Source: a virus. From it: a stretch of DNA of 64,000 nucleotides. The stretch lies in IMG/VR virus record IMGVR_UViG_3300025010_000055, positions 2,970 through 66,969 of that record; one strand, 5' to 3'. Shown piece after piece: positions 2,323 to 64,000 of the stretch (the stretch's first letter is position 1; each line of letters opens with the position of its first letter). Below the pieces are notes generated by a model, which had not been told where the DNA came from, ran no database searches, and saw only the letters and a list, made by a program, of their open reading frames with translations. The translations under genes and the position numbers were made by a program.

Positions 2323-3615
2323 ATGAGTAAATATCATCCAAAATTCGATAACTATATACCGTCCGATGTACCCGGAAGAAAAGTTGAAAGGTCGTATTTA
2401 GCCCACTTCCAAGTCTCTGCCGCCGACGCCGTTGCCGCAAGCGCAGCAGGCGTATTGACCGCGACTAATCTTGGCGCGGCGGCAGAGACAAAAACAACCG
2501 GAATAACTAACCCGGCAGTCCCACGGGGACTGTCGATAGTAGGTAATGTGTCCGGCATAACCGGGAATGTGGTGGTGACGGGTACTAACTACGCCAAAGA
2601 AGCTATGACAGAGACATTAGCGCTGAACGGTACTGCAACCACACACGGAAACAAAGCCTTTAAAACCGTAACCAGCGTTGCTTTGCCAGTGCAGGTGCAT
2701 ACACCGGTGGCTCAGGTAGAAACGGCCACAGCAGCCGGTACGGTAACCACAGCAGGTAATGCCTCCGTGGTAGTTACTGCCGCGGGGATGACTGGCTCGC
2801 CAAAAACAATAGCCGTCCCCGTGACTGGTACCTGCCAGGTTGAAACAGCAACCGTTGTCGGCACTATCGGCGCAGCCGGACAAGGTAATGCTACTGTTGT
2901 AGTGACTGCTGCAGGTATGACGGGATCGCCTGTCACTCTGGCTGTTGCTGTAGCCAATAACGACACCGCCGCGCAGGTGGCCGGTAAAATTAAGACAGCC
3001 ATGGGCCTTGACGCGGGCATAGCCGCATTTTTCACTGTTGGCGGATCTGACGCTGCAATTATCCTGACAAGAAAAGCCGCCACTGCTAACGATGCCACCA
3101 TGAACGTTGCGATAGACAACGGCACCTGTACCGGCCTGACTGCAGCGCCTACGTCCGAGAATACCACCGCTGGGGTAGTTGGTGACGATGCTTCGGGTAT
3201 TGCTGGTAAAATTAGAACTGCTTTAGCTGCTGATACAGCAGTAGCAGCGCTGTTTGCAGTATCCGGTGCCACAGATAAAGTTATCTTGACCAAGCTAACA
3301 CCTGCCGCAAACGATACCTCTCTAAATATCGCCATTGCGGATGACACATCTGTTGGCGTAACCACTGCCGCCAGCAGCGCAAATACTACGGCAGGGGTGC
3401 CGTATGACATTGTGAGCGTTGGTTGGAATGATAAGCTGGGACTGCCGTATCAGTTGACACGCAATACCATTATCCCGGGCCTGACGTTTTTGGATAATAC
3501 CAGGGAAGCCACGGAGCCAACAGTAACCGTAAGCGCGACGGCATTGGAGTCTAACGCAATAGATTTAAACAGCGCTCTTGATGGTACAGCGGTTGATGTC
3601 TACCTGGTGGTATAA
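2323..3615 (+). CDS. Ala/Thr/Val-rich virion protein, probable head decoration or fibre, with a nested duplicated domain
   Basis: Position after capsid; QVETAT...VVVTAAGMTGSP and ...NTTAGV each occur twice. Confidence 0.6.
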   Translation: MSKYHPKFDNYIPSDVPGRKVERSYLAHFQVSAADAVAASAAGVLTATNLGAAAETKTTGITNPAVPRGLSIVGNVSGITGNVVVTGTNYAKEAMTETLALNGTATTHGNKAFKTVTSVALPVQVHTPVAQVETATAAGTVTTAGNASVVVTAAGMTGSPKTIAVPVTGTCQVETATVVGTIGAAGQGNATVVVTAAGMTGSPVTLAVAVANNDTAAQVAGKIKTAMGLDAGIAAFFTVGGSDAAIILTRKAATANDATMNVAIDNGTCTGLTAAPTSENTTAGVVGDDASGIAGKIRTALAADTAVAALFAVSGATDKVILTKLTPAANDTSLNIAIADDTSVGVTTAASSANTTAGVPYDIVSVGWNDKLGLPYQLTRNTIIPGLTFLDNTREATEPTVTVSATALESNAIDLNSALDGTAVDVYLVV

Positions 3616-3884
3616 TGACAGACATGGAACTGCTAGAAAAGGTCAAGGCCGGGTTGGGTTTGTCTGGTGAGTATACGGATCCGGCCATACTGCCGAAGGT
3701 GTTGGCTACCAAAGGCTACATGGTCAACGCTGGGGTTACGGTAGAGCAGGTAGAATCGGATTTAGGCATAGTCTGCCTGACGGTGGGCGTGAATGACCTA
3801 TGGAACCTAACAAGCGGGGAAGTAAAATTTAGCCCCGCTTTTGATATTATTTTATGGCAATTGAAGGCGGTGAGTATGCCATAG
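3615..3884 (+). CDS. Head-tail connector (gp6/gp15-like)
   Basis: 89 aa helical protein starting LLEKVKAGLGL; synteny. Confidence 0.7.
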   Translation: MTDMELLEKVKAGLGLSGEYTDPAILPKVLATKGYMVNAGVTVEQVESDLGIVCLTVGVNDLWNLTSGEVKFSPAFDIILWQLKAVSMP

Positions 3885-5329
3885 CTAAGATTGATAACAT
3901 GACCCCTGGAACGGGCAGGAGATTGAAAGAAGACAGCACGACGGTTAACATTGCGGATAAGATAGAGGCCATAGCCGAGGCCTTGGATCTATCGACGCTG
4001 GCAACTAAGGATAACCAGGACGCTCAAACTTCTGCCCTAAACGATATACTGGAACAGCTTGAAATAGGTAATGCTCCTAACATATTAAGAAACACTGGTA
4101 AAAACCCTCCCGTTGGGGTTATTTTAGGCGCAGCCGGGACATATGAGTCAGACTCCATTGACAGACCAAATCAAAATATACCCGTAGGTCAAACAAGAGT
4201 ATGGGTATATGCAGATCAATCCGGTACTCTGAATCTTCGGGAATCGCATAATGGAACTAATTGGACGACAACTAATTCTTTGTCTATATCTGCCGGAATA
4301 ACCAATATAATGAACTGGTTTAAATTGACCCGTAGATATGCCAAGATTGAATACGTTAACGGTGGTGTAGCGCAAACAGAGTTTATTGTATTGCAATATT
4401 TCCTTGGCGTTGGAGTAACCATTATAAAAGCAGAGGATGGAGATATCGTCAGTATTGGTAGTAAAGCAGATGCTGCTGTTACAGATCCTACTTTGTCTGG
4501 TAGTGAGATTGCATTATTAAAGGGTTTGCTGACAAAAATAAATACTATTATCGACGGTACTACCCCTGCTACTACCGTACTAACGGCAGGAAATAATTTC
4601 GTTGGAACTGTTAGTATATCCCCTGAATCTGACGGGAATATCCTACAGGTGAATAGTGACGGTTCTATCAATGCCCAACTAATTGGTACAGACCCCAATA
4701 GTGGATCGTCTGTACAGCAGAGCATTGTCGATATGGAAGGATTTGGTGTTGCTCCTGTCCAGATCAGAGGGAGTAATCAAGTCGGGGGAACAATGGATGC
4801 CAGTGTTGTAGATGTTGACACAGACGCTGAAAATATACATGGTGCGGTATCTGTGTCGTGGAGAAAATCAGGTGTCGGCGCTCCAGAATTTGGTACAGAT
4901 GCTAACCCTGTCGCTATCAAACTAACTGGTAGTATACCTTCGGGAAATAATACGGTTGGAAATATCGGCATAAACGCTGGTTCTAATTTAATCGGAAAAA
5001 CTGCAAACAATTTTCAGGAAAGAGTGTTTAACTTGATTGTTGGGGCAGGTGCAACAGTAACAAGTGACACCTACCAACTTGAAGGAAGAAAATTAGTAGG
5101 AATTTTTATTACAACAGGAACGGGAACAACGTATACACTGAGAATACGATACCTGAAAGCAAATGAAGCAGCTCCATATGGTCAGACGGATGTTGTAACT
5201 TCAAAAACTGGAGCTAATTCATTTGATGTATATACTACAGGGTGGGAAGCTTCATTTTATCGTTTAGCTATTACTGATATTGGTGGTGCTGGTTTTACGG
5301 CAACAATTAACTTAAAGGAGAGAGATTAA
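3854..5329 (+). CDS. Putative virion accessory or fibre protein with an AT-rich, probably variable C-terminal domain (true start may be a few codons downstream)
   Basis: 491 aa ORF in the head-tail region; beta-rich; repeated xLxGS-like motifs. Confidence 0.5.
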   Translation: MAIEGGEYAIAKIDNMTPGTGRRLKEDSTTVNIADKIEAIAEALDLSTLATKDNQDAQTSALNDILEQLEIGNAPNILRNTGKNPPVGVILGAAGTYESDSIDRPNQNIPVGQTRVWVYADQSGTLNLRESHNGTNWTTTNSLSISAGITNIMNWFKLTRRYAKIEYVNGGVAQTEFIVLQYFLGVGVTIIKAEDGDIVSIGSKADAAVTDPTLSGSEIALLKGLLTKINTIIDGTTPATTVLTAGNNFVGTVSISPESDGNILQVNSDGSINAQLIGTDPNSGSSVQQSIVDMEGFGVAPVQIRGSNQVGGTMDASVVDVDTDAENIHGAVSVSWRKSGVGAPEFGTDANPVAIKLTGSIPSGNNTVGNIGINAGSNLIGKTANNFQERVFNLIVGAGATVTSDTYQLEGRKLVGIFITTGTGTTYTLRIRYLKANEAAPYGQTDVVTSKTGANSFDVYTTGWEASFYRLAITDIGGAGFTATINLKERD

Positions 5330-5689: not shown

Positions 5690-6532
5690 GTGGTTTTTGT
5701 TATTAATATACTCGAATCGTGGCCTAGATATGAGAGAGATAAGAAATTTCTCAATTATTCGCCGCATACACTAAAGGCATATAAGATACAATGCCGACTT
5801 TTATTTTCAATGCGTTAGGTAAAAACCCCCGACTTCCAGTCGGGACAGCTTTAGCATAAATGGTTGGTGGTATAGTCCATGAAGCATCGGAAAAATCACT
5901 ACATGGTGAGTCCATGTGTTGTAGTTGGTTTTGCGGTAGAAATGCCACTAGGCTACTTATAGATGCTCGCTCTGAAATTGTGAGAAACCTCCCACTACTC
6001 GTAGAAATGCCACTAGGCTACGTATAGAGCCAAGCTTTAAAAATCTACCGATAACATACAGAGTTGCGGTTTAGTATGGTCTGCAAGTTTCAGTTGCAAG
6101 CTTAAGTCTGCTTTAGCAAGAGGACTTCCAGATGACTTTAGTCTTAATTGCGACTTCCAGTCGCTTTTCGAACCCCTGCACTTCTAGTGCAGGGTCGTTG
6201 AGTTTAATTCAAAATGTCTCTTTTGGCTTAAAAAATACGTCGAACTAAGAAACGATAATAGTCCTGCCCTATTTGTTACTGACCGCGCCCCAAGACGTAT
6301 GAGTATAGCGCGTATGAGAGAAATAATTAAGGCGGTTGCTATTCGTGCGGACATTGAAGCAAGTGTCTATCCCCACAGATTAAGACATTCTTATGCCACT
6401 CATTTATTGGACAATGGTGCCCCAATGGAGGCGATACAGCAACTTATGGGGCACGCCAAGCAGGAAACAACCCAAGTGTATGCTCAGCTTTCCGGTGAGC
6501 GCAGAAAAGAATTATATAAGAGGTATTTTTAG
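5690..6532 (+). pseudogene. XerD-like tyrosine recombinase, interrupted by a 398-bp element and lacking its central part
   Basis: N-terminal ESWPRYERDKKFLNYSPHTLKAYKIQCRL before 5805; FNSKCLFWLKKY...YPHRLRHSYATHLLDNG...LMGH...TQVY after 6202. Confidence 0.85.
5805..6202 (+). mobile_element. Non-autonomous IS200/IS605-type element (PATE/MITE-like), copy 1
   Basis: 398 bp; appears identical to the reverse complement of 38542-38939; preceded by TTTAT; subterminal hairpins CCCGACT-TCC-AGTCGGG and CCCTGCAC-TTCTA-GTGCAGGG; no terminal inverted repeats, no target duplication, no transposase. Confidence 0.8.
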
Positions 6533-61222: not shown

Positions 61223-61777
61223 GTGGCTTCTAGTCAGTCAGAAACACTCTCAGAACTAATAGAAAAACGTGGCGGGGTAGTGGTCCTTTACTCACAACTG
61301 CTCCAAGATACAATCTACTTTGTCAGAGACCAACAAGCAGCCTCACGAGTGTCAGGTGGTATCTGGTTTACTCTCAGGGAACTGCACGTATTATTTGCAG
61401 ACGGCGAACTAACAAACCCTGAATCAGTCATGAGAATCAGCGTTATTAAAAAACAGTTTCCGGGCTTAGAGTTCGTAGACGCTCCAACTCAGGACGTGTT
61501 AAAACCGACAGACCCGAGGCCGGATCTGACTGAGGACCATGTCCAGTGGAATCGGTTTCTACGGATAGCATGGGAACAGAATTCAGCCATTGCAAAAATC
61601 CTGTACGGGTTTCGGGAGAACGGCCTGAGGTTAACCAGGGGTAACGCTGGATGGGTGCTTAGACCTGAGGTTTCAGAGCGGTGTTTTGAATCGCTGGAAT
61701 GTTACGAGACGTTGAAGAGTAAGTGGCTGGTGCCGTATGGGCAGCAGATAACTAACTGGTTAGCTAGACTAGGATAG
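61223..61777 (+). CDS. Hypothetical protein
   Basis: RBS AAGGAGG; ORF track. Confidence 0.6.
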   Translation: MASSQSETLSELIEKRGGVVVLYSQLLQDTIYFVRDQQAASRVSGGIWFTLRELHVLFADGELTNPESVMRISVIKKQFPGLEFVDAPTQDVLKPTDPRPDLTEDHVQWNRFLRIAWEQNSAIAKILYGFRENGLRLTRGNAGWVLRPEVSERCFESLECYETLKSKWLVPYGQQITNWLARLG

Positions 61778-61788
61778 GAGGAAAACTA

Positions 61789-62313
61789 TTGGACGCTAAT
61801 TTACTAACCGTCAAAGACTGGAAAGGTAAATTTCAAATCAACGAGGCCTATAGACCTATAGCCAAGGCATTATGCAAAAAATTCCCTGAACTAAAACACA
61901 TACCAGTAGACAGTATTATTTTTCTTGATGATACAGAGTCTAAGGGTAAAACAGCTAACAAAGTCAAGAACGCTCAAATAGGCAAAATCAGCGATAAGTG
62001 GCATGAAATCATATATCAGTTAACGGGCAGACGGTTTATGTATTTCATGGAGTTTTTTAAGCGTAATACGGGCCACATGTCTAGTGAGCAGATAATCCTA
62101 TTAGTATATCACGAGTTAAGACACATCGGTCCAGATGGTGATCTGGTTCATCACGACATTGAGGAATGGGCCAACATATACACCAGACTGGGCGTTGATT
62201 GGTCAGCAACAAAACGTCAACTGCCAGACCTGCTAGCCGCAGATGTTGACTGGGATAGCATCAAACTTACTAACCTGTTTACGTTCCCGAAGGGAGGCAA
62301 TCACAATAGCTAA
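61789..62313 (+). CDS. Putative phage metallopeptidase
   Basis: LVYHELRHI...HDIEEW (HExxH). Confidence 0.75.
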   Translation: MDANLLTVKDWKGKFQINEAYRPIAKALCKKFPELKHIPVDSIIFLDDTESKGKTANKVKNAQIGKISDKWHEIIYQLTGRRFMYFMEFFKRNTGHMSSEQIILLVYHELRHIGPDGDLVHHDIEEWANIYTRLGVDWSATKRQLPDLLAADVDWDSIKLTNLFTFPKGGNHNS

Positions 62314-62894
62314 ACAAGCCAGAACACTAACAGACGATGAAATAAATTATCTTAAAAACAATTTAACTAACTGTAAAATAGAATCTATTGGAACGCAGAT
62401 TAATCTTAGCCGCAGCACTATTTGTAAAGTGGCTAAGGCAATGAATCTAACGATACCTAAGGGCAAGCACAGAGGCACTGCTCCGGTATTCACGGGCAAG
62501 AGTTCTTACACAGATAAGTGCTATGATCTTAAACTGCCGAGGCAGAAGCTAACAGACGGACTTACTCCAAGGCAGGAGAAACAACTGGAAGAGTTATTCG
62601 CTAAGCTGCTGATAAAAGTCAGTGTTGAGTTTAACCGTATCGAGATAGATAGGCTAGACGATTATTGGGCCAGTATGTAATATATAAAGGGTGGTGGCTT
62701 GTGTGCATAGTAAGCTACTTAAATCTACATCAGAAGAGTTTTGGGCTATATGGGGACGTACAAGCCCACCAGATAACAACCAGAAGGATTATAATTGTCC
62801 TCTTCCTGCTCCTCCTACTAAACGCGGAGGAAGTAAGTCAGCAGGACGTAAGAAGCCTAAGAAGAAGCCACAGCAAGCAGATTTCATTATCTGA
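62306..62894 (+). CDS. Two hypothetical genes (HTH-like ORF ending at 62680; basic ORF 62691-62894); starts uncertain
   Basis: IESIGTQINLSRSTICKVAK is HTH-like; late-regulator position. Confidence 0.45.
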
Positions 62895-62935
62895 CCGTTT
62901 ACAAACTATTGACATATGTGATATACTAGCGACGT

Positions 62936-63000
62936 AGTCGTATACCTAACGGAACGACTACACTCATAGATTATTCAGCGCCTGAGCAGGGCGCTTTTCT
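62936..63000 (+). promoter_or_regulatory. Late-promoter leader: hairpin plus terminator-like stem
   Basis: TG-A-TATACT at 62919-62927; GTAGTCGT/ACGACTAC stem; AGCGCC..GGCGCT-TTT. Confidence 0.5.
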
Positions 63001-63031
63001 TATGCCTATTACCAGGGAGAAGGTGGTGACT

Positions 63032-63307
63032 TTGGCCAGGCATCCAGAAGTATACCGTAACAAACAGTGGCCTAAGTCCAGGGCGTTTGTCATATCACGG
63101 GCTAACGGTCTATGCGAACATTGCAGGACCAAGGGCATCTTTAAGGCGGGCCGAGAGGTTGACCATATTGTGGAGCTTACTGACAGCAACAAACACGACT
63201 GGAACGTAGCTTATAATCCTGAGAACCTTCAGTATCTTTGCAGCGATTGACACAACCATAAATCCGGTAGGTCTACTGGATTACAGGACTTCTTAACTCC
63301 ACCATAA
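63032..63307 (+). CDS. Packaging-type HNH endonuclease (HK97 gp74-like) with an in-frame TGA at a zinc-ligand Cys; candidate selenoprotein
   Basis: LCEHC...EVDHI...NLQYLCSD*HNHKS; TGA at 63248-63250; frame stays open to TAA at 63307; SECIS-like hairpin at 63261-63282. Confidence 0.75.
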
Positions 63308-63421
63308 ACGATTATATTTTACGTGAGAATAGGGTCTGCAGCCCGATAAGAGACGGTTTTCTCCACCGTCTCTTTCTTATGTTTTAAAAAAGGAGAAATA
63401 AAACACTGGGAGAGGTGTTAT

Positions 63422-63919
63422 ATGATAGAGATATGGAAAGATGTCAAAGGATACGAGGGGTTATATCAAGTTAGTAATATGAGTAGGATTAGAAATCAAA
63501 AAGGACACATATTATCACCAGCGGATAACGGTAATGGATACCTTCGCTTTAGTTTGTCTAGTGGTAATAGAGCGTATAAAACCAACTATTTGCACCGTCT
63601 TGTTGCGGTAGCGTTTATTCCCAATCCTAATAATTTACCTGAAGTAAACCATAAAGACGAGGATAAAAGTAATAACTGGATAGATAATCTTGAATGGTGT
63701 AACGTATCTTATAATCGTTCGTATGGAACGAGAAAAGAAAGATGTGGCATCGTTAAAAGAAAAATAGTGCGTGGTAGAAATATATTAGACGGAAGCGTTG
63801 TTGTGTTAGATAAAGTTGCTGACGCAGAAAAGTTTGGATTTAGCAAATCATCTGTGTCTAAGTGTTTATGTGGTCGGGCTAAGGCTACTGGCGGTTATGT
63901 ATGGGAGTATGCACAGTAA
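63422..63919 (+). CDS. NUMOD4-HNH homing endonuclease
   Basis: EIWKDVKGYEGLYQVSN, HRLVA.AFIPNP..LPEVNHKDEDK.NN...NLEW, GGYVWEY. Confidence 0.92.
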   Translation: MIEIWKDVKGYEGLYQVSNMSRIRNQKGHILSPADNGNGYLRFSLSSGNRAYKTNYLHRLVAVAFIPNPNNLPEVNHKDEDKSNNWIDNLEWCNVSYNRSYGTRKERCGIVKRKIVRGRNILDGSVVVLDKVADAEKFGFSKSSVSKCLCGRAKATGGYVWEYAQ

Positions 63920-63977
63920 CCACAAGTCTGGCAGGTCAACAGGTTTACAGGAATTTCTAACCCCCCCCGGTTGTTAA
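63918..63977 (+). repeat. Recoded duplicate of the HNH gene 3' end, next to the probable cos region
   Basis: Encodes NHKSGRSTGLQEFLTPPGC* versus NHKSGRSTGLQDFLTPP* at 63254-63307. Confidence 0.9.
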
Positions 63978-64000
63978 ATAACTACTGAAAAACTACAGAC

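Follow-up and report, generated by a model that had tools for sequence, protein, structure and literature searches.

An in-frame opal codon at a zinc-ligand position of a phage packaging HNH gene: selenoprotein candidate or ordinary stop?

Is the TGA that interrupts a DNA-packaging gene of a phage decoded as selenocysteine (Sec), or is it an ordinary stop? The question is raised by a terminase-associated HNH endonuclease gene at 63032..63307 on the plus strand of a 64,000-nucleotide window, which comprises bases 2970-66969 of the 66,969-base linear IMG/VR record IMGVR_UViG_3300025010_000055. An earlier note, made from the sequence alone, proposed that this codon is read as Sec, inserted with the help of a hairpin just downstream. 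We favor, at a probability of about 0.58, an ordinary opal codon without dedicated recoding, the gene being rescued by leak or by a helper, or its loss tolerated. The locus is at the same time a live but unproven selenoprotein candidate.

The interrupted HNH gene

The gene was recognized by the PF01844 profile, by homolog alignment and by comparison with PDB 5h0m, a phage-type HNH endonuclease. With the TGA read through it scores 35.8 bits against Pfam HNH PF01844 (cut-off 21.4), the only match to this family in the contig, and its product matches 5h0m at E 5.7e-13. TTG 63032 is the likely start because homologs begin MARHPE; ATG 63002 is a further in-frame start. The motif L-C-S-D-TGA-H-N-H-K reads at 63236-63262 exactly as first described, with the TGA (63248-63250, plus strand) in frame with both starts, at residue 83 counting from the ATG and 73 from the TTG. 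Past the TGA the frame continues for the expected 18 codons (HNHKSGRSTGLQDFLTPP) and ends at TAA 63305-63307.

Terminase-associated HNH enzymes have a [CxxC]2 zinc site and a His-Asn-His motif (PMC3592412). The TGA stands at the codon of the fourth Cys of this site, in keeping with the zinc-ligand position proposed for the UGA at the outset. Under the standard code no single polypeptide carries the complete [CxxC]2 site and His-Asn-His motif; the zinc site would be complete only if the UGA is decoded, and the truncated product of 72 or 82 residues, which stops short of the fourth zinc ligand Cys and of the last catalytic His, should be inactive. No second intact HNH gene of the terminase-associated family was found elsewhere in the contig. 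Cys occupies the aligned position in all 22 aligned protein homologs, and 17 distinct homolog DNA tails have TGT or TGC (16) or CAT (1) at this codon, never TGA. An in-frame UGA aligned with a homolog Cys, with conservation continuing past it, is the pattern that marks a selenoprotein gene, and it is found here.

The TGA is real and fixed, not an assembly slip. An identical TGA-bearing stretch lies on contigs of four runs (two samples of one groundwater study, possibly the window's own source) at word depths of 137.7 and 7.48, with no other letters, these depths coming from assembled Logan contigs in which minor alleles are invisible. One contig spans 61175-63999, the 2.8 kb are identical in both samples, and 12 contigs, drawn from JGI, Logan and ENA, encode the truncated product of 82 amino acids (aa). 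That the contig is metagenome-assembled, and that related phages coexist in the samples, could favor an artefact of sequencing or assembly, or a two-strain chimera; this was rejected as hardly credible, given the two-sample identity at such different depths and the truncated protein on contigs from three assembly sources. The earlier note had proposed confirming the TGA in reads; at contig level it held in both samples, with no TGC or TGT seen. Genome-wide reassignment of TGA was also rejected: TGA ends 4 of 29 long open reading frames (ORFs), and a scan for TGA-interrupted ORFs showed nothing convincing. The window is without tRNA genes, and therefore encodes neither a phage suppressor nor a tRNA-Sec.

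The TGA is a singleton among the relatives searched, which counts for the ordinary opal codon and against Sec. Absence of a TGA from every homolog had been named beforehand as telling, and across the homolog searches it is indeed what was found. In IMG/VR the motif matched 11 contigs with TGH and none with TGA, a family-wide TGA pattern had one match, which is not an ORF, and the exact 35-nt pattern around the TGA had none when the window's own record was set aside. The best 120 of 386 matches to an HNH profile were all full length (90-165 aa). Sec (TGA) orthologs with a conserved hairpin were found in no other genome by protein, DNA-tail, IMG/VR pattern or profile searches. A distant HNH protein of 73 aa (P0091, 39% identity) ends at ..LLCRD, the codon equivalent to the window TGA; it is the one protein ending there among the best 150 of 354 matches in 1.84 billion representatives, and lies on a lone 622-nt ENA contig, so that it may end at a TGA or merely at the contig end. 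Among the relatives of P0091 a stop at the aligned codon occurred in none of 58 loci (17 counted as TGY, that is TGT or TGC, by regular expression, and 41 judged free of a stop from their translations).

The hairpin and a possible supply of selenocysteine

Ten nucleotides past the UGA begins a 9-bp hairpin with one G-U pair and a GGUC tetraloop (63261..63282, plus strand; arms 63261-63269 and 63274-63282, loop 63270-63273) that resembles a selenocysteine insertion sequence (SECIS). Stem, loop, the 10-nt spacing to the stem and the position of the loop, which starts at nucleotide 20 after the UGA, are exactly those noted earlier. The minimum free energy (MFE) of the 60-nt stretch around it is -11.3 kcal/mol. 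In the bacterial SECIS (bSECIS) model of the Fig. 2 legend of PMC13188914, the loop has 3-9 nt and the stem 4-16 bp, G occurs in the first two loop positions, 16-37 nt separate UGA and loop, and the energy is -7.5 kcal/mol or lower. The hairpin passes all the constraints published in that legend (loop 4 nt, stem 9 bp, spacing 19 nt, -9.1 kcal/mol for the hairpin itself), so that the original appeal to bacterial SECIS models, with an apical G at the right range, was well placed.

If the codon is Sec, host SelB would bind the GGUC hairpin and deliver Sec-tRNA(Sec), yielding a full-length HNH protein with a Cys3-Sec zinc site. Besides passing the bSECIS constraints, the hairpin mirrors the fdhA SECIS of seven Sec-using genomes. 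These seven fdhA genes, which have an in-frame TGA and come from the class of the nearest relative, show UGA-CAY, with a GGUCU loop at +22 on a 7-bp stem, where the phage shows UGA-CAC, a 9-bp stem and GGUC at +23; in both the element lies inside the ORF. The phage hairpin differs in a loop shifted by 1 nt, a tetraloop in place of a 5-nt loop, and another reading frame across the loop. The likeness to the Escherichia coli fdhF SECIS seen at the outset holds as an fdhF/fdhA-like geometry, with the bulged U that E. coli SelB needs absent from the phage stem. The SECIS, were it one, would have arisen from the Lys-Ser-Gly-Arg-Ser-Thr-Gly-Leu codons.

Covariance models speak against Sec. Those of Rfam gave 6 matches at E<=10 in 62500-64000, none to a SECIS family, and no Rfam family, SECIS or other, matched the hairpin region at this threshold. 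A model built from the seven fdhA SECIS elements (R1) matched the window 15 times at E<=10, never at 63248-63290; this test is harsh because R1 is over-fitted to, and dominated by, conserved fdhA coding sequence. Since both kinds of covariance model were negative and no Sec orthologs were found, the gene is not filed as a selenoprotein. Parts of the hairpin come readily from the peptide encoded: among synonymous resamples of the tail peptide, 24% had an MFE as low as the native one, an ordinary folding energy for this tail, and 38% had GGTC at the loop, which Arg-Ser codons make cheap. Uninterrupted stems of at least 9 bp number 22 on the plus strand of the 64 kb. In favor of Sec, GGUC(N)-loop hairpins whose stem has at least 7 bp number 2 on the plus strand and 0 on the minus strand of the window, where shuffles give 0.26 per strand. 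Against it, stems of 7 bp stand at the equivalent place in L012, the closest relative, and in a second copy of the HNH tail (tail B, below).

A Sec-competent host appears possible from the genomes compared. The genome with the closest TerL (G155, 74%) has selA (574.9 bits), selB (392.3) and tRNA-Sec (63.2), with selD and fdhA each carrying one in-frame TGA (selD at C102 21520-22449, fdhA at C84 8525-10534, tRNA-Sec and selB at C51 2540-5312). Of the 401 genomes sampled from its class, at least 8 have an fdhA with a single in-frame TGA, and in each of these the SECIS has a GGUCU loop. Against Sec, the prophage HNH gene of G155 itself has TGC at the codon aligned with the window TGA. A TerL scan of genome contigs gave two metagenome-assembled genomes (MAGs), G001, a Paenibacillaceae MAG that is the nearest named relative (70-71%), and G002 (66%). 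No selA or selB over the cut-off was found in G001, G002, G683 or G542, and selA occurs in 5 of 331 genomes of the order of G001, making Sec a rare trait in the likely host order. HNH homologs with a named source come from Paenibacillus and Cohnella prophages. A 398-bp repeat at 5805-6202 had no match in 401 genomes of the class of G001, and the phage collection gave only matches below 60% identity. The look for host sel genes suggested by the earlier note was answered both ways by these genomes, G155 having selA, selB, selC and selD and the other four none over the cut-off.

Sec insertion would also suit a packaging-competent phage whose HNH tail is intact. It leaves the coincidence of the TGA with the junction of a neighboring homing endonuclease, described below, to chance or to homing-site protection, and in the passages of PMC13188914 concerned Sec is described in active sites, with predicted metal-ligand roles in some families and no structural zinc-finger case. 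The earlier proposal is borne out in its Cys-aligned UGA and its SECIS-like hairpin; it is weakened by the lack of a TGA homolog, and had left the endonuclease junction unweighed. We hold it to be a serious possibility, though less likely than not.

The homing endonuclease, the second tail and the cos end

Further evidence for the ordinary opal codon lies just downstream. An intact I-HmuI-like HNH homing endonuclease gene of 165 aa (63422..63919, plus strand) has the NUMOD4, HNH_3 and NUMOD-like domains of that type, at 52.3 bits (cut-off 23.4), 29.0 (24.8) and 26.7 (just below the cut-off of 27); it is found on 12 contigs, and has 75 IMG/VR relatives at up to 58% identity. It runs into a second copy of the HNH tail, tail B (HSNHKSGRSTGLQEFLTPPGC and stop; 63912..63977, plus strand), a remnant that matches profile positions 73-91 at E 2.4e-4 and becomes homologous to the HNH family from the codon that corresponds to the upstream TGA. 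The tail directly following the TGA, tail A (63251..63307, plus strand, stop included), has Pro codons CCA CCA and no cos-type C-run. The two tails are the same at 17 of 18 residues and agree at 97% of codon positions 1 and 2 and 33% of third positions; this implies that selection at the protein level acted on both until recently. The last 8 nt of the endonuclease ORF overlap tail B, which has one codon (AGT) more than tail A; this codon is the source of the endonuclease TAA, without which the ORF would be 24 codons longer. A pattern for tail-B-type genes (HSNHKSGRSTGLQ) had no match in IMG/VR.

The endonuclease junction and the sole lesion of the gene therefore coincide, with a chance probability near 3% by the author's estimate (one codon either side of about 90). 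Affinity also seems to switch at the TGA codon, the N-terminal part having 88% protein identity to L012 and 75% to L014, and the tail 72% and 94%, respectively; this is weak evidence because the tail has only 18 residues. A homing endonuclease and a duplicated tail meeting at the same codon give a credible non-Sec origin for the TGA, and the start of tail B homology at that codon, beside the endonuclease, was counted for the ordinary opal codon.

Enzymes of the I-HmuI type are often intron-encoded, and a group I intron could join exon 1, ending at GAT 63247, to the tail B CAC at 63912, removing tail A, a terminator and the endonuclease. The exon would end in U and the intron in G, and the joined product would be of family length, reading ..LCSD-HSNHK.., which resembles the LCSDHHNAK of L006. 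Yet no Rfam intron matched at E<=10, a strong terminator lies inside the supposed intron, the endonuclease ORF reaches 8 nt into exon 2 and leaves no room for a 3' core, the product would lose the invariant His84, and no P1 partner for the exon end was seen on reading 63248-63420. An intron is very improbable, and even taken jointly with an artefact it deserves little credence.

Tail B also bears on packaging, through its position at the cos end. The record opens with terS, terL and the genes for portal, protease and capsid, and the HNH gene lies at the opposite contig end, beside cos, so that the earlier description of a packaging HNH is upheld. At the right cos end (63961..64000, plus strand, identified from related contig ends) a C-run motif, CCCCCCCCGG, is followed by 30 nt to the physical end; the contig ends 23 bases past tail B. 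The conserved motif CCCCCCGG is likewise found in relatives, the window stopping 30 nt after it and six related ends (L012, L013, L014, L016, L017 and L018; five distinct sequences, L012 and L013 being identical) 31-35 nt after it. These cos ends terminate in ..GGGAC, ..CAGAC or ..GTAAC. The motif is internal in L129, L005 and L006, and the window right end together with the record left end is colinear with the HNH-terS spacer as it stands, uninterrupted, in integrated or internal relatives. Judged from these sequences, the contig ends are physical cos ends; the DNA being cos-cut, the sequenced phage packages its genome. An inverted repeat considered as a cos element was unsupported, its distance to the contig end varying among relatives.

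Where the arrangement is simple (L014, L018), the Pro-Pro-Gly end of the HNH gene forms the C-run, so that the 3' end of the gene also serves as a cis packaging element. Where there are insertions between HNH and cos (the endonuclease in the window, a 470-aa gene in L016, 380 nt in L017), the end retains a remnant with the motif, and the HNH gene carries a separate tail. From this insert-plus-remnant pattern of relatives, tail B is best read as a cos-proximal HNH remnant. The 470-aa gene of L016, a 71.7-kb phage, lies at 3318-4730, and its C-terminus, ..FDYLIPPGSII, is an HNH-tail remnant with the cos C-run. An 853-nt contig at depth 5, from a second phage of the same sample, matches 63251-63285 (tail A and hairpin) apart from 2 differences; its match begins with the codon that follows the TGA and lies 50 nt from the contig end, seemingly an A-type tail by its own cos end.

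The origin of the TGA, and the phage's way of coping with it, are inferred as follows. One TGY-to-TGA change would have arisen in a packaging HNH gene that is otherwise intact and was functional until recently, at the junction codon of the homing-endonuclease cassette. Most ribosomes would terminate there; the phage, which would need little HNH protein, nevertheless produces cos-cut DNA. The hairpin would be a product of the K-S-G-R-S-T-G-L codons plus chance. The TGA may also have been kept as a change to the homing site of the resident endonuclease.

The ordinary opal codon could be survived in two ways. UGA-C is a weak stop context, and in Bacillus a few percent of UGA codons are read as Trp. 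Of the stop codons UGA leaks most, with read-through of 10^-2 to 10^-3 according to a passage of PMC4989110. HNH supply by SECIS-independent near-cognate read-through is tentatively proposed; it explains working packaging only if little HNH suffices and Trp is tolerated, and it makes the hairpin a chance event of 2-5%. Somewhat more doubtful is a dead allele that arose at the homing site or was selected by it, with co-resident relatives supplying the function or its loss being tolerated. This explains the junction coincidence, and short related contigs at depths 5-44 in the same runs were counted for such helpers; it fits badly with a sole allele at depth 138 in cos-cut DNA.

Several observations weigh against the ordinary opal codon. 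All 10 family-conserved residues after position 83 are kept in tail A, with no decay past the TGA, and the assembled contigs neither exclude nor show a minority TGY allele. A simplified bSECIS test, in an ungapped implementation, is passed by 31 of the 1,917 UGA triplets of the window (1.6%) and by 4.9% of synonymous resamples of the tail peptide, and by none of 20 homolog tails, so that of the HNH genes compared only the TGA-bearing one has a passing hairpin, a point for Sec; a stem of at least 9 bp is rare, occurring in 0.43% of the resamples. Skunavirus sk1 needs its HNH homolog, HrdP, to make infective virions (PMC12967558), and a null allele of an essential gene of this type should not be the sole allele at such depth in cos-cut DNA. 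Trp at the zinc-ligand position may be incompatible with an active enzyme.

Other features surround the gene. A promoter-like site (TTTACA, 18 nt, TATACT; 62898..62927, plus strand) was found upstream by consensus scan only, with 10 of 12 matches, and a terminator-like hairpin with a T tail (62977..62995, plus strand), also from a scan, precedes the HNH ribosome site. With an 8-bp hairpin these fall in 62898-63031, which could be a regulated leader; 62977-63036 is common to lower-depth related contigs of the same runs, from other phages. Between HNH and the homing endonuclease the scan gave an intrinsic-terminator-like hairpin of 10 pairs with a T tail (63348..63374, plus strand). Three genes upstream of HNH lies a putative phage metallopeptidase (61789-62313; PF18894, E 1.3e-23), and ORFs 61223-61777, 62243-62680 and 62691-62894 had no Pfam match.

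Known systems and what the locus means

The window gene shares its fold family (PF01844) and its site adjoining cos, terS and terL with the terminase-associated HNH endonucleases. Its product is 47.6% identical to the HNH protein of Lactococcus phage 936, and HK97 gp74 and Skunavirus sk1 HrdP are comparison systems of the terminase-associated HNH type. The window gene differs from these in having a TGA for the fourth ligand, and an endonuclease and its own 3' remnant before cos. A free-standing I-HmuI-like HNH homing endonuclease that disrupts or splits its target gene is reportedly seen in phage Aeh1, where mobE splits nrdA. There likewise the endonuclease sits at the most conserved motif of an essential gene, with a piece of the target downstream; unlike that case, the window has a complete recoded target 3' end upstream of the endonuclease, and its downstream remnant coincides with a cis cos motif. 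The A1 protein of phage Qbeta is made by programmed UGA read-through, giving a C-terminal extension. Near-cognate decoding of UGA would be common to both, and read-through in the window would complete a catalytic domain, not extend a protein.

Viral selenoproteins are known from the glutathione peroxidases of molluscum contagiosum and fowlpox viruses (PMC8310308, in passages that name no phage case), and no phage selenoprotein was found in the literature searched. The poxvirus proteins, so far as those passages describe them, are captured eukaryotic redox enzymes with a eukaryotic SECIS, where the window has a phage nuclease and a metal-ligand position. A 2026 review of the prokaryotic selenoproteome (PMC13188914) contains no occurrence of "phage" or "virus".

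Without Sec, the locus would still exemplify clearly how an essential packaging gene is invaded at its catalytic motif by a homing endonuclease, with the gene tail retained as a cos element and a phage that packages its DNA with an apparently broken HNH gene. If the TGA is Sec, the phage would provide the first natural bacteriophage selenoprotein, with the 21st amino acid in a metal-binding, not redox, position of a phage protein, and packaging and virion output would be tied to host Sec machinery and selenium, a trait rare in the likely host order.
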